From an uncultured delta proteobacterium (GTDB taxonomy: Bacteria > Desulfobacterota > Binatia > UBA9968): a stretch of DNA of 64,000 nt. This document shows, piece after piece, positions 34,123-38,915 of the stretch. The DNA lies in assembly GCA_963728565.1 (NCBI GenBank), contig CAVSLC010000013.1:128001-192000 (forward strand), given 5' to 3'. Position 1 is the stretch's first letter, and every line of letters begins with the position of its first letter. The position numbers and the translations under genes were made by a program. Below the pieces are notes generated by a model that was given only the letters and a program-made list of their open reading frames with translations, was not told where the DNA came from and did no database searches.

Positions 34123-34881
34123 ATGACAGTTTCTAGCGCAGAGTTCGTCAAAGAAATTCAGCAGATGGTGCGTAAAAAACATTCAAAGGATCACCCCATC
34201 ATCGGCATGATCGAGGAAGGCAAATTAGATCACGAGCAGCTCAAAGGGTTTGTTGGTCAGTTCTATTTGTTTTTTCCAAAGCCTTTTCCCAAGCCTATAG
34301 CCGCAATGCTCAGCCGCTGTCCAGACGACCCGGAACTCGAAAAAATGTGGATCGAAAACGTTGTCGAAGAAGGGACGGGGGAGATCACCGGTACGGACAG
34401 TCACAAGGGCCTCTTCATTCAATTTGCCCAATCGTGCGGCTTTACCAAAGAAGAGTTAGACAAGGTAGAGCCGCTCCCGGAAAGCCAAGCCTTCCTAGAT
34501 TGGCGCGAGCTTTTGATGTATCAGCGCAGCTGGCTCGAGTTGTATGCGTGCCAGGGGTTTTGCCTCGAAGGTACGGCAAACGAGCGTATGACAAAGATTG
34601 TCAATGGGCTTACCAAGCATTATGGATTCAAGCGGGATTCTGAAAGTATTCGGTACTGGACCCTCCATATGGGTGTTGATGAAGAACATATGAAAGTCGG
34701 GCCATTGGCTGTGGAGAGATACGCGATTACTGAACCTCAGCAGGCCCAAGTGCGGAGCTCAGTGCAAAAGACCCTGGATCAATTCTGGCTTGCTTTTGAT
34801 GGAATCAAACGAGCGTTCGTCGATAAAGATGACATTTACGCCAAGTGGAGAAATTCAGACAGCAAATCAACTTCAAAATAG
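34123..34881 (+). CDS. Heme-oxygenase-like dimetal oxidase (PqqC/TenA/CADD superfamily)
   Basis: Metal-ligand pattern ENVVEEG...SH, LEG, YWTLHMGVDEEH. Confidence 0.85.
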   Translation: MTVSSAEFVKEIQQMVRKKHSKDHPIIGMIEEGKLDHEQLKGFVGQFYLFFPKPFPKPIAAMLSRCPDDPELEKMWIENVVEEGTGEITGTDSHKGLFIQFAQSCGFTKEELDKVEPLPESQAFLDWRELLMYQRSWLELYACQGFCLEGTANERMTKIVNGLTKHYGFKRDSESIRYWTLHMGVDEEHMKVGPLAVERYAITEPQQAQVRSSVQKTLDQFWLAFDGIKRAFVDKDDIYAKWRNSDSKSTSK

Positions 34882-34894
34882 AAGGGGATGATTC

Positions 34895-35548
34895 ATGGAG
34901 ATGGTTGATCTTTCGCGAATTATTTACGACGGTATGCCCAAAATCCCGGCTCTGCCGGACGTTCATGTGCAGAAGTTTTTTAGTCTCGAAAAGGGCCACC
35001 CTTTGAACGTGACGGAGCTGTCGTTGCCATGTCACGCCGGCACTCACGTCGATGCGCCCATTCACATAGTGCCAAACGGCAAGTCAATAGAAGAACTTCC
35101 GCTGGATTCATTTGTCGGCAACGGAGCCATCATCGCTGTACGAAAAAACGGCGGAGAAGAAGTGACAGCGGAGGATCTTCAGGCATCGGGGGTTGAGGTG
35201 AAGAAGGGCGATATCCTGATGCTCTATACCGGCTGGGACGAAAAGTTCGATAGTCCTGATTATAACCTTCATCCGTATTTGTCCGTAGATGCCGCCGAAT
35301 GGATGGTTGATAAGGGGATAAAGATGTTTGGTATCGACTGCATCACCGTCGATTTGCCGACGCCGCTTAGACCCAAGGGATTTGATTTCCCCGTGCACAA
35401 AACTCTTCTAAGCAACAACATTTTAATTGCAGAGAACGTGACAAATCTTGGACCTGTCGTTGGCAAGAGCTGCCGGATCCTGGCCTTTCCTCTCCGGATC
35501 AAAGGCAGCGATGCGGGACATGCTCGAATTGTCGCCGAACTCAATTGA
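34895..35548 (+). CDS. Cyclase-family metallohydrolase (kynurenine formamidase-like)
   Basis: HAGTHVDAPIH, GDILMLYTG, GID, VH..LL...ENV, GSDAGHARIVA. Confidence 0.9.
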   Translation: MEMVDLSRIIYDGMPKIPALPDVHVQKFFSLEKGHPLNVTELSLPCHAGTHVDAPIHIVPNGKSIEELPLDSFVGNGAIIAVRKNGGEEVTAEDLQASGVEVKKGDILMLYTGWDEKFDSPDYNLHPYLSVDAAEWMVDKGIKMFGIDCITVDLPTPLRPKGFDFPVHKTLLSNNILIAENVTNLGPVVGKSCRILAFPLRIKGSDAGHARIVAELN

Positions 35549-35564
35549 GCTTAGGTTGAAATAT

Positions 35565-36534
35565 ATGGCTTCAACGAAAACCATCAAAGGGTATTATCGG
35601 CGCTTGTTTAACGCCGTTCGACGATAGCGACCATATAGATTATCCGGCCTTAGAGAAGGAAATGGATTTTCTTCTTGCCGATTGTGACGCGGTAACAATT
35701 GCCGCTGTGGAAGCCGCCGAGTACACCATGCTCAGCCGCGAAGAGCGAAAAGAGCTTTTAAAAGTCGGCACGCAGATGGTCGACAAGCGCGTTCCGGTAA
35801 TCATTGGTTGTTCCAGTCCGTCGCCTCGCGAAGTAATTGACCTGGCCGAGTACGCAGCCACGATTGGCGGAGACTTTGTCCAAGTGCTGATGCCGCTCCG
35901 CCCATGGGGAGGTCAACCGACCATAGCGGAGTTGATGGAATTTTATACACAAGTCGCGTCGGCAAGTCCCTTGCCGGTGGTTTGTTATCATAATCCTGGG
36001 CCGGGCGCCGATCCGCCACAGGATGCTTTCGTCAAGATAAGCGAAATTGACAACATCCGATATTTCAAGGAAAGCTCAAGAGATATCACGAAGATCTCCA
36101 GGTTAATTGAACAGATCGAACTTGCCGGGCGGGGTCATTACTTCACCACCATGCAGCCACTGCTAGTCACTTTGATGCTCGGCGGCTCCGGCGCCACTAT
36201 GCCTCCGCCCGGAACCCGCATCGGGGCGCAAATTGTGAAAGCATTTCGAGCAAACGATCTTGAAAGCGCCCGGTTTTGGGCGCGCTGCTACGCATTATTT
36301 CCCGGAAAATGGGCCGCTTACGGTTTGCCGCCGGTAATGAAATCTGCGATGAAACACTTCGGCGTGGATATCGGCAATCCTTCGCGGCCCTATGCCCCCG
36401 TAAGCCCCCGCGATCATGCTCAAATCGGCCAGTTTCTCCGCCAGGTTGGGTTAATTGGTGAAGCCCCACCTAATCCGAAAGCTTTGATAGACGCCGCTAA
36501 TTTCCTTGCTCAGGAAGATACCTTTCTCCGTTAG
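35565..36534 (+). CDS. DapA/NanA-family aldolase/lyase; apparent 1-nt insertion near 35590
   Basis: MASTKTIK, then GIIGACLTPFDD..IDY in the shifted frame that joins ORF 35662; CYHNP and Schiff-base Lys in YFKESS. Confidence 0.85.
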
Positions 36535-36603
36535 CTTGACGATGGATACTCGCTAGGAGCAATCGTCTCGCAAATATTCGCGCATAATCTTATTGGAGCT
36601 GTG

Positions 36604-36792
36604 ATGGAATGGATTAAAGATCTTTCCGATAAACTGGTTATTTGGTTTCTCCGCAAAACTTCCTCGTTCGGCAAAGAGCTTACCGGCGCAGGTCGAGCAG
36701 AGCAGCTCCTGTGGCGAGAGCAGCGCTTGCGGAATCTAAAGGGTCTCGCAATGAGCTACCAGCAACGCCACGGTAAAAAAACTTCAGAATAG
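36604..36792 (+). CDS. Small basic hypothetical protein (62 aa)
   Basis: GGAG RBS, fills the gap in a collinear cluster, stops 12 nt before the SQR-like gene. Confidence 0.55.
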   Translation: MEWIKDLSDKLVIWFLRKTSSFGKELTGAGRAEQLLWREQRLRNLKGLAMSYQQRHGKKTSE

Positions 36793-36804
36793 GTTTCCGA
36801 TCTA

Positions 36805-37962
36805 ATGCGTCGATTCAATGGGCGAAAACAAATTGTGATATTGGGCGGCGGGTGTGGCGGCGTGGTTGCCGCGAGTCAGCTGGGCAGGAAATTGGGCGCC
36901 GACCACGATGTTATTCTCATCGACCGCCGCGCGGATCACGTCTTTATGCCCGCGTTTCTATTCCTGATGACCGGTGACCGACAGCCGCGAGAGATTTGTC
37001 GCAGCCTGAGTGCGCTGAAGAAGCGCAACGTTAAAGTGATTCAATCCGAAATTCTCGACATCGATCCTATGGCTCAAGAGGTCAGCCTTGCCAAAGAAAA
37101 GATCAGTTATGACTATCTCATTGTTTCTTTAGGCTTGCAGACGAGACCGGACTTGGTAAGCGGCTTTAATGAAGCCTCGCTTCATCCTTGGGAGATGGAA
37201 TCGGCTCTCAGGTTGCGGCATGCACTGTCTGAGTTTCGCGGTGGAAGGGTTGTCGTCGGCGTGCCTTTGGGACCCTACCGCTGCCCGCCAGCGCCCTATG
37301 AGGCACAGTGGATGTTGGACGGCTTTTTTAGGCAGCGCGGTATTCGTGATCGTGTACAGATAGACTACTTTACCCGGGATCCTGAACCGACCGGCGAAGC
37401 CCACGATCCGATAGTTTGGATGGACGCCGAGAGCAGAAGGCGCAAAATTGATATCCACTACGAATTTGTCGTGCGCTCTATCGATCCGGTCAAAAAACAA
37501 ATTGATGGACTCTATAACTATAGTTTGCCCTACGATCTTCTGGTGATGGTTCCGCCGCATCGTCCAGCGCAAGTTCTCCTCGACTGTGGATTGGCAGAGG
37601 CTGAAACCGGCATACGAGTAGACTATGACACGCTGCAAACGAAATGGAAAAACGTCTTCGCGATCGGCGATTGTGCCGATATGCCGGCTTCTAAAGCGGG
37701 AGGTGTTGCCCACCAAGAAGCTGACGTTCTGGCTAACAATTTAGCTGTAGAAATCACTGGAAAGGGAAGACCGGTAGATCTTTGGCTGCATACAATATGA
37801 CTACTTGCTTTCGGCGCTGGACGCGCCGCTGCTAATAGAACAACTTACCCCACCGGATGGCCGCCTTACGGAGTCACCGATCCCCGGACATGGGGACCCA
37901 ATCGACTGATCTATTGGGCTAAGATTGGCTTTGAAAAATGGTGGTTGTGGCGGTATTTCTAG
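36805..37962 (+). CDS. Sulfide:quinone oxidoreductase-like FAD oxidoreductase, probable selenoprotein (385 aa, Sec332)
   Basis: GGGCGG FAD motif, YDYLIVSLG, YRCPPAPYE (Cys160), FAIGD, KAG. The in-frame TGA at 37798 is followed by LLAFGAG...YWAKIGFEKWWLWRYF-TAG. Confidence 0.85.
37812..37828 (+). promoter_or_regulatory. Candidate bacterial SECIS element
   Basis: CGGCGC-TGGAC-GCGCCG: 6-bp all-GC stem starting 11 nt after the TGA; the loop starts 17 nt after it, with G at loop position 2. Confidence 0.7.
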
Positions 37963-38127
37963 AGCCTAGACTTTAATTCAGAGTAAGCTTTATCGAGGCG
38001 GAGCAAATCATCTCATCCAACTTACTTCTTTGGCGTAACTTGAGGCATTCGATTGCCGGGGCCGATTCATGGTTGGATTAGAGTAGCAGGGGTAGGGGCG
38101 CAGCAAATAAGTGGAGGCGTATACAAA

Positions 38128-38155
38128 AGTTTACATAATATATCTTATCAGACGT
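38128..38155 (-). other. dif: dif site (XerC/XerD chromosome dimer resolution)
   Basis: Minus strand reads ACGTCTGATAA GATATA TTATGTAAACT (11-6-11), compared with E. coli GGTGCGCATAA TGTATA TTATGTTAAAT. It is intergenic between convergent genes. Confidence 0.9.
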
Positions 38156-38219
38156 TAGATTATGAGGAAGGCTAGATCAAGGAGTTGACGAACTGTAGTC
38201 ACTACTCGATGGATCGTCA

Positions 38220-38915
38220 CTATTTAACGGCTGACTCCGGCTCAGCCTTGGCTTGCAGTTCAGCAACTTGCAGCATGAGACGCGCGGCAATCGGTGAGTT
38301 AGGGTTTTCTTTGATGTACTGCTGATATGCAACAATCGCCGATTTGTTGTCACCGACGACCGTATAACACCGTGCCTTTCCGAGCACGGCGGATTCCTTC
38401 AGCGCTCCGGTAATTCGTTCCGCTTCGGTATAGTGCTGAATTGCGCCGGCGCATTGGTTTTTCACTTCTTGTATGTGCCCAAGCGTCATCAAACCTATCT
38501 GTCGATAAACGGAGTTCTGATCTGTGGAAGCGATGAAGCGCTGGGCCGCCGCGGCCGCTTTGTCCAGATCGTTTGTAGCTAGATGACTGTTGGCCTCGTA
38601 GAGATGCGCCAGAGCGGCATAATGAGACCAGCGATACTCTTCGACTTTTTCAAATTCCGGAATCGCTTCGTTGTGCTTATTGGCGCGAAAAAGCGCGATC
38701 GCCCTTTCGAAGTGCTGGGCTGCTTCCTGGTTTTGGCGGCTCTTATAAACCTGCCAAAGCGAAATCCCGATGATCACAGCCATGATCAAAGCACCAGCCA
38801 GAATAAAAAGTCGACGCTTTTGTTGAACGAAACTCAAGGCCTGCTGAGTGAATAGCACGAAGTTGTCGGGTTGCCGGAGTTCCTTACGTGACAAGTGCTT
38901 AGCGCTGGTCGCCAT
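38220..38915 (-). CDS. Membrane-anchored TPR protein (YfgM-like)
   Basis: RKELRQPD.F N-terminus, one TM helix, TPR helices. Confidence 0.8.
   Translation of the reverse strand: MATSAKHLSRKELRQPDNFVLFTQQALSFVQQKRRLFILAGALIMAVIIGISLWQVYKSRQNQEAAQHFERAIALFRANKHNEAIPEFEKVEEYRWSHYAALAHLYEANSHLATNDLDKAAAAAQRFIASTDQNSVYRQIGLMTLGHIQEVKNQCAGAIQHYTEAERITGALKESAVLGKARCYTVVGDNKSAIVAYQQYIKENPNSPIAARLMLQVAELQAKAEPESAVK

Follow-up and report, generated by a model that had tools for sequence, protein, structure and literature searches.

A probable selenocysteine at the active site of a sulfide:quinone oxidoreductase-like flavoprotein from uncultured Binatia

We analysed a 64,000-nucleotide stretch of DNA from an uncultured delta proteobacterium of the Binatia (GenBank assembly GCA_963728565.1, contig CAVSLC010000013.1, positions 128,001 to 192,000 of the forward strand), here called the window, whose own numbering is used below unless another contig is named. 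In this window an open reading frame (ORF) for a flavoprotein resembling sulfide:quinone oxidoreductase (SQR) opens with an ATG at 36805 and is annotated as ending in ...WLHTI-TGA, with the TGA at 37798-37800 on the forward strand. Past this TGA no further stop interrupts the frame over the next 53 sense codons (LLAFGAGRAAANRTTYPTGWPPYGVTDPRTWGPNRLIYWAKIGFEKWWLWRYF), after which comes a TAG at 37960-37962. We report that the apparent stop very probably encodes selenocysteine (Sec) at the active site of the enzyme. An earlier note, made from the DNA letters, had described the ORF end, the 53-codon extension and the TAG, all of which are borne out by coordinates and sequence; the cysteine that it placed at residue 160 in a CPxAPYE motif is likewise there, encoded by TGC at 37282-37284 within YRCPPAPYE. 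Its proposal of a 385-residue enzyme with a Cys160/Sec332 redox centre is the reading on which the alignment, the relatives, the sel genes and a bridging contig agree. The parts of the gene, all on the forward strand, are as follows.

36805-37962, forward: gene for a putative SQR-like selenoprotein of 385 residues, with TGA as Sec332 (Pfam; best NCBIfam match NF049943; AlphaFold2 (AF2) model)
37282-37284, forward: TGC encoding the first redox cysteine, Cys160, within GPYRCPPAPYE (invariant in an 18-sequence alignment of the clade; at least 90% in a 103-sequence alignment of the family)
37798-37800, forward: in-frame TGA, read as Sec332, motif H-T-I-U (186 of 186 readable loci; cysteine column; alignment with human Cys379)
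37801-37959, forward: 53-codon tail, translated only upon decoding of the TGA (protein conservation with drifting third positions)
37807-37808 pairing with 37831-37832, forward: possible 2-bp lower stem below the candidate selenocysteine insertion sequence (SECIS)
37812-37828, forward: candidate upper stem-loop of a bacterial SECIS (bSECIS), with a CGGCGC/GCGCCG stem and a UGGAC loop (fold; bSECIS criteria; synonymous constraint)
37903-37956, forward: Trp/Tyr-rich terminal helix, residues 367-384 (AF2 secondary structure)
37960-37962, forward: true stop, TAG (orthologues end here with TAA, TAG or TGA)

Conservation of the TGA and its place in the enzyme family

An in-frame TGA stands at codon 332 in all 186 related loci that could be read there, 107 from genomes and 79 from metagenomes. 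The genome loci come from 110 fetched, three of which are cut before the site (L077, L114 and L128), with L109 read by hand; the metagenome loci come from 80 fetched contigs, one of which (L134) is cut. When 61 genomes of the order (G000 among them) were searched in six frames, 55 of them yielded 56 copies covering residue 332, and each copy, at identities down to 67%, has one in-frame TGA and no sense codon at that place. The two genome sets overlap, and the loci together contain 122 different 48-nt segments counted from the TGA; counts that take in genomes G012 and G018 do not depend on either. The relatives listed in the protein database give the same picture, with 119 of 120 being 327-334 residues long, where gene callers that stop at the TGA would end them. 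The earlier note had looked to relatives for a shared TGA and hairpin, and they share both.

Individual loci add some observations of their own. G002, a genome of the same genus, has the gene twice (on contigs C259 and C324, with 84% and 78% identity to the query), and both copies carry an in-frame TGA. Locus L117 has a frame shift of one base ahead of the Sec codon, through misassembly or because the copy is broken, and L129 a run of masked N; HTI-TGA-LLAFGAGR is kept in both. Among the closed Binatia genomes (L092-L127), one lineage has Cys at residue 336 (U-L-L-S/A/T-C-G) where the others have Phe or Tyr, and the resulting UxxxC could give Sec an additional partner for a selenenylsulfide. 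The third base of codon 336 doubles as the first base of the hairpin stem.

The family assignment gives the TGA its meaning. In Pfam the protein matches Pyr_redox_2 (69 bits) and FCSD_central (30.2 bits, cut-off 27), and its best sequence matches in the PDB are human SQOR (E 2e-33), Acidianus SQR, FCSD flavoproteins and Aquifex SQR. Counted along the alignment with human SQOR, Cys160 falls at chain residue 161 and codon 332 at chain residue 339; since the offset is a constant 40, these residues are Cys201 and Cys379. The same column holds Cys in 110 of the 133 family representatives of 300-600 residues, in line with the claim of the earlier note that the TGA falls at the second cysteine. Both catalytic positions are retained, as is the glutamate of CxxAPxE. 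In the alignment used for modelling (A3, 103 rows) the family rows were picked for Cys at column 332, and the invariance of that column there is by construction.

The AF2 model built from this alignment has a mean pLDDT of 95 and a pTM of 0.93; it replaced a first model from 18 close sequences, which had reached a pLDDT of 72.6 and fell below 50 over residues 328-366. Foldseek matched the model to the SQRs of A. aeolicus and A. ferrooxidans (TM-score 0.85 each), human SQOR (0.82), FCSD (0.81-0.85) and NDH-2 (about 0.73), and a sequence search of the PDB with the C-terminal fragment gave no match past residue 341. Sec332 lies in the first beta-strand of the modelled C-terminal domain (residues 328-337), flanked by the apolar Ile331 and Leu333. 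The conserved C-terminal Cys of solved SQRs is described as lying in the same strand with apolar quinone-site residues on either side (PMC9666304). There is thus little doubt that the product belongs to the SQR/FCSD family of flavoproteins.

A natural cysteine counterpart exists in the same clade. The protein P0006 has 385 residues, is 70% identical to the query without gaps and has Cys at position 332. In place of GAGRA, the peptide whose codons form the hairpin in the TGA forms, P0006 has EPGKA, which suggests that the hairpin has been lost there. A metagenome scan with P0006 for DNA of the Cys form returned 80 loci, 70-76% identical to P0006, and all 79 that were readable have TGA and none Cys.

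Relation to known SQRs and probable function

The kind of enzyme proposed here has been predicted before. A Sec-containing type III SQR with the motif HxxU was predicted by deep-Sep in Desulfosediminicola ganghwensis and D. flagellatus (Xiao & Zhang 2025, PMC12013277), and a 2026 review (Zhang et al., PMC13188914) lists an HxxU SQR family, crediting deep-Sep. The best NCBIfam match of our protein is NF049943 (type III SQR, selenoprotein subtype), at 250 bits and under the 525-bit cut-off. True members of that family are P0173 (627 bits), P0168 (534 bits) and the truncated P0194 (525 bits, ending ...DGHAT), all about 33% identical to the query. The earlier note knew of no characterised Sec-SQR; this stands for experimental characterisation, whereas a predicted type is already catalogued as NF049943.

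In a search of 1.84 billion representative proteins the clade of the query stands isolated. Beyond P0123, which is 55% identical and also ends at residue 331, the next relatives are no more than 38% identical, of full length, and have Cys. A quick FastTree tree, calculated without bootstraps, places the query, P0006 and P0123 in a clade of their own (support 100, branch 0.63), apart from P0173, P0194 and P0168. Like the NF049943 proteins, the query has the superfamily and fold class, Sec in the same column in place of the C-terminal catalytic Cys, and the HxxU motif (H329-T-I-U332), and in both cases the Sec is a computational prediction. It differs from them in length (385 residues compared with about 406-420), in its single terminal helix and in its hosts, which are Binatia and Acidobacteriota metagenome-assembled genomes (MAGs) instead of Desulfobulbales. 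Moreover, the NF049943-scoring genes that were examined are mostly Cys forms, whereas Sec is near-universal in the query clade. We found no paper that describes this clade; the supplementary listings of BSepDB and deep-Sep may include it, and the BSepDB main text has no 'sulfide', 'quinone' or 'Binat'. The Sec-SQR kind is therefore already known as a prediction, and the query clade lies outside the NCBI model, is annotated as truncated and is apparently uncatalogued.

Characterised enzymes provide further points of comparison. Human SQOR (type II; PDB 6OI5) pairs its Cys201 and Cys379 with C160 and U332 in the alignment and is, like the query, of the two-cysteine type with no third flavin-linking Cys; it differs in being only about 23% identical, in having Cys and not Sec, in its mitochondrial location and in its longer C-terminus. 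The type I SQRs of Aquifex aeolicus (3HYV) and Acidithiobacillus ferrooxidans (3T31) are the best structural matches, and their catalytic cysteine has V-C-F and I-C-I flanks, comparable with I-U-L here. They are 20-26% identical to the query and have two C-terminal helices instead of one, together with a third Cys (Cys128 in A. ferrooxidans, according to PDB entry titles) that is not seen here. FccB (1FCD, 3VRD, 5N1T) shares the FCSD_central match, TM-scores of 0.81-0.85 and the same two redox Cys positions. Unlike FccB, the query leaves no room for a signal peptide, its Rossmann strand starting at residue 9, has no adjoining cytochrome c gene, and carries an aromatic helix at its C-terminus. 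For the branch that NCBIfam names type III, the characterised Cys enzymes of Caldivirga maquilingensis and Methylacidiphilum fumariolicum (MFUM_v2_0219) are the functional reference; they have sulfide-to-quinone activity, with a role in sulfide detoxification in the methanotroph, according to PMC10205796. The placement of the query clade in type III rests solely on the NCBIfam name, and its gene, unlike that of M. fumariolicum, does not adjoin TusA and DsrE2 genes.

Human SQOR also supplies the model for a mechanism. There, HS- opens a Cys201-S-S-S-Cys379 trisulfide, Cys379 holds the persulfide that is removed by the acceptor, and the Cys379 thiolate then attacks the Cys201-flavin adduct, giving FADH2 and quinone reduction (PMC11039317). 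By analogy, the query would be a 385-residue FAD flavoprotein of the SQR/FCSD fold in which Sec332 stands in for the C-terminal catalytic Cys and forms a redox pair with Cys160 beside the flavin. HS- would open a Cys160-S(-S)-Se-Sec332 bridge, the outgoing sulfane sulfur would be carried as a selenopersulfide on the Sec position, and Sec would then attack the Cys160-flavin adduct, leading to FADH2 and reduction of a membrane quinone. We propose the mixed Se-S(-S) bridge with Cys160 because Sec is the stronger nucleophile and the better leaving group at the hand-off and resolving steps. Selenium incorporation, sulfide as the substrate, a quinone as the acceptor, membrane binding and the selenium-sulfur chemistry are what we infer from this computational comparison.

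On this basis the enzyme is probably a true sulfide:quinone reductase, although this is held with clearly less confidence than the family assignment. The alternative that survives best, still a tentative one, is a real selenoprotein of the SQR fold with another task, acting on a different chalcogen or thiol substrate (a persulfide, polysulfide, selenide or organic thiol) or passing electrons to a non-quinone acceptor, and perhaps serving the pathway of the genes upstream. The low identity of 30-38% to other family members, the long separate branch and the score under the NF049943 cut-off would fit such a divergence, as would the residues that follow Sec, which depart from the family consensus (ULLAFGAG compared with CF(L/I)E(T/V)GxG). 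The upstream synteny is with the four genes listed below, no sulfur gene was found nearby, and human SQOR itself is described as promiscuous and selenide-using. Against this, the two catalytic positions and the glutamate of CxxAPxE are preserved, SQRs head the structural matches, and Sec is flanked by apolar residues as in known quinone sites. The neighbourhood argument is also limited: with 270 nt between the DapA-like gene and the SQR-like one, co-transcription with the three enzyme genes upstream cannot be taken as given, and because kin share synteny by descent, the upstream genes are a lead and not functional evidence.

Decoding of the TGA

In Escherichia coli the minimal SECIS element is a 17-nt upper stem-loop 11 nt from the UGA. 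The hairpin CGGCGC-TGGAC-GCGCCG, which the earlier note had pointed out and which is confirmed at 37812-37828, likewise begins 11 nt after the TGA and equals that element in its geometry; it has a 6-bp stem, a distance of 17 nt from UGA to loop and a minimum free energy (MFE) of -14.4 kcal/mol. As in the E. coli fdhF-type SECIS, the stem-loop lies directly 3' of the UGA with a G at the start of the apical loop; unlike that element, to which it has no sequence similarity, it has no Rfam match. According to PMC13188914, the bSECIS model comprises a loop of 3-9 nt, a stem of 4-16 bp, a G in the first two loop positions, a distance of 16-37 nt from the UGA and an MFE of at most -7.5. Compared with it feature by feature, the hairpin agrees with this published model on every point. 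In our reading, SelB and tRNA-Sec would decode UGA 332 under the guidance of this 17-nt GC hairpin.

The part of the evidence that separates RNA from protein constraint is the behaviour of synonymous sites. Across a 164-codon segment with 60 conserved four-fold codons (82 unique sequences), the three lowest third-position entropies belong to stem codons (+5 GGC, 0.17 bits; +8 CGC, 0.10 bits; +9 GCC, 0.17 bits), the next lowest site has 0.78 bits, and the values for +6 and +7, the codons of the loop, are 1.74 and 1.61 bits. Relatedness does not lie behind this ranking because all sites share the same tree. The three four-fold sites of the stem hold C or U only, either of which pairs with G. Taken over the 122 distinct sequences, 99.7% of cells in the upper stem are paired, and all 15 one-sided stem changes are C-to-U, yielding G.U or U.G.

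The machinery for Sec insertion is complete in the genome. The genes selA (607 bits), selB (396 bits) and selD (382 bits), all above curated cut-offs, are clustered at 34981-39495 of contig C28 (G000, outside the window), and a tRNA-Sec with the anticodon tca lies on contig C25, so that the search for selA, selB, selC and selD proposed in the earlier note finds the full set. selA was detected in 58 of 61 relatives and in 3 of 3 carriers labelled Acidobacteriota; G015, the sole 100%-complete genome without selA, is among the six genomes that have no orthologue covering the site. selD itself encodes a selenoprotein, with an in-frame TGA (...KAAG-U-AAKLGP...) and its own downstream hairpin. The selD hairpin differs in sequence from the one in the SQR-like gene, its apical loop starting G-U about 36 nt after the UGA, and the pair fits recognition by SelB of a structural class, not of one fixed sequence.

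Plain read-through, with the TGA read as Trp, Cys or Gly by near-cognate decoding or through a code change, would likewise account for a translated tail. We consider it very unlikely. TGA is the stop codon used most often in the window, where it closes 18 of 38 ORFs with 250 residues or more, as the earlier note had maintained in calling it an ordinary stop there, and it ends many orthologues of the SQR-like gene itself. In addition, the complete Sec machinery co-occurs with the gene, the hairpin combines SECIS geometry with synonymous-site constraint, and the site is the catalytic Cys column, a classic Sec/Cys pair.

Slightly less probable again is that the TGA is a true stop after a 331-residue product and that the conservation downstream marks a separate small gene or RNA element. 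The gene callers all yield 331-residue products, and the hairpin could be an attenuator or a stability element. However, the tail is in frame at every locus and its substitutions are protein-like: the amino acids are conserved across loci while four-fold third positions outside the stem vary between 0.78 and 1.99 bits, and orthologues all end at the same codon position, by TAA, TAG or TGA. P0006 joins both parts through a Cys codon, and full-length Cys homologues align up to residue 385. In the AF2 model the tail adds two beta-strands of the C-terminal domain as well as the terminal helix, and a 331-residue product would miss the second catalytic residue and that whole domain.

Among the read differences listed, none falls at 37798-37800. 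A DNA contig from an independent run (X3 record 32) spans 37695-37962 with the TGA intact and one other letter, the listed change at 37866, so the codon withstands the read check that the earlier note had called for. An RNA-library contig (X16 record 24, 37719-37911) also bridges the site, and the RNA run X15 gave no cover past about 37842; such contigs show neither transcript ends nor expression level. That the TGA stems from faulty sequencing or assembly, or from a recent nonsense mutation in a pseudogene, is refuted by its presence in all 186 readable loci, which come from many assemblies, and in the independent DNA contig.

Several results weigh against the selenoprotein SQR that we propose. 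The energy of the hairpin is not distinctive when compared with shuffles (z = -0.82; 40 of 200 fold equally well), and Rfam, searched with 37700-38000 at E values of up to 10, holds no match. In the 122 segments no pair differs in both of its bases, and with the observed value reached by 500 of 500 shuffles the covariation test is uninformative; covariation is not measurable because the stem is too conserved. The GAGRA peptide is itself conserved, so that protein and RNA constraints are partly confounded, and the X16 contig, although from an RNA library, is no proof of transcription. With regard to the protein, the prediction shows a single terminal helix (367-384), whereas most SQRs are described with two amphipathic C-terminal helices (PMC9666304), and the hydrophobic moment of helix 367-384 is not above that of shuffles, 1631 of 2000 reaching the observed value; of the amphipathic terminal helix in the earlier note, the Trp/Tyr-rich helix is therefore upheld by the prediction, and its amphipathicity is not supported by this measure. 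No sulfur-metabolism gene or cytochrome was found among the neighbours of the gene. Finally, we found no experimental Se incorporation or activity for any Sec-SQR in the literature. Weighing all of this, we regard the explanation as a whole, namely an SQR-like flavoprotein with Sec332, decoded through SelB and the hairpin and using a selenium-sulfur mechanism, as likely.

Neighbourhood, distribution and wider meaning

A small ORF and three enzyme genes precede the SQR-like gene on the same strand. The three enzyme labels are all far under the NCBIfam cut-offs.

36604-36792, forward: conserved 62-residue ORF without a known family, its end 12 nt ahead of the SQR-like start codon
within 34123-36534, forward: CADD/PqqC/BesC-like haem-oxygenase-like di-iron enzyme (syntenic in 58 of 62 eligible loci)
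within 34123-36534, forward: arylformamidase-like cyclase (syntenic in 58 of 65 eligible loci)
within 34123-36534, forward: DapA-family aldolase (syntenic in 72 of 72 eligible loci)

The 62-residue ORF is found in the same place and on the same strand in 73 of 75 eligible loci and is conserved as a protein, with the consensus MEWIKDLSDKL.IWFLR.TS.FG.ELT..G..EQ..WREQRLRNL.GL. It has no match in Pfam or NCBIfam, and the protein atlas gave 0.78 only; to judge from its position and conservation, it may be co-transcribed with the SQR-like gene or encode a partner protein. A scan of 36400-38300 for promoters and terminators returned none of either.

Records of related loci are mostly labelled Candidatus Binatia, 'delta proteobacterium', Thermodesulfobacteriota or Syntrophobacter-type, with single records labelled Chloroflexota, Verrucomicrobiia and Candidatus Udaeobacter, and more distant copies (62-65% identity) occur in Acidobacteriota MAGs. 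Near-identical sequence is present in soil metagenomes and in soil metatranscriptome libraries. In the phylum of the Acidobacteriota carrier G061, 14 of 101 sampled genomes match in the NF049943 search and, the centre genome aside, none has a Sec form; three of those 14 pass the NF049943 cut-off and all three carry Cys. An in-frame TGA in G146, considered as a Sec candidate, is the normal terminal stop of a Cys form.

Representatives of other SQR-like branches (P0177, P0267, P0160, P0128 and P0194) end exactly one column before the catalytic Cys. Of these representatives only P0194 is tied to a known Sec family (NF049943); P0177, P0267, P0160 and P0128, seen as proteins, may be further TGA/Sec forms, and the ends of P0177, P0267 and P0160 hint that Cys and Sec have switched several times. 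With one Cys form (P0006, protein only) compared with 186 TGA loci, it is conceivable, if rather doubtful, that the Binatia/Acidobacteriota clade represents a second, independent recruitment of Sec to the same SQR column and that Sec is effectively obligatory there. If so, an obligatory Sec would imply chemistry beyond that of a thiol, for example activity on selenide, or a faster hand-off of persulfide when sulfide is very low, by way of a mixed Se-S(-S) bridge, and sulfide handling in an abundant uncultured soil lineage would hinge on the supply of selenium.

The databases hold this SQR-like protein almost only as a 331-residue fragment that lacks the second catalytic residue and the C-terminal domain, and NCBI's one Sec-SQR model misses the clade; as a result, the SQR is broken in metabolic reconstructions of Binatia. 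Here Sec is placed where human Cys379 carries the outgoing persulfide, and the natural Sec/Cys pair within one clade (the query and P0006) allows the benefit of selenium to be tested. As the gene is near-universal in its order (55 of 61 genomes) and present in many soil metagenomes, it may tie selenium availability to the detoxification or oxidation of sulfide in a widespread, uncultured lineage of soil bacteria.

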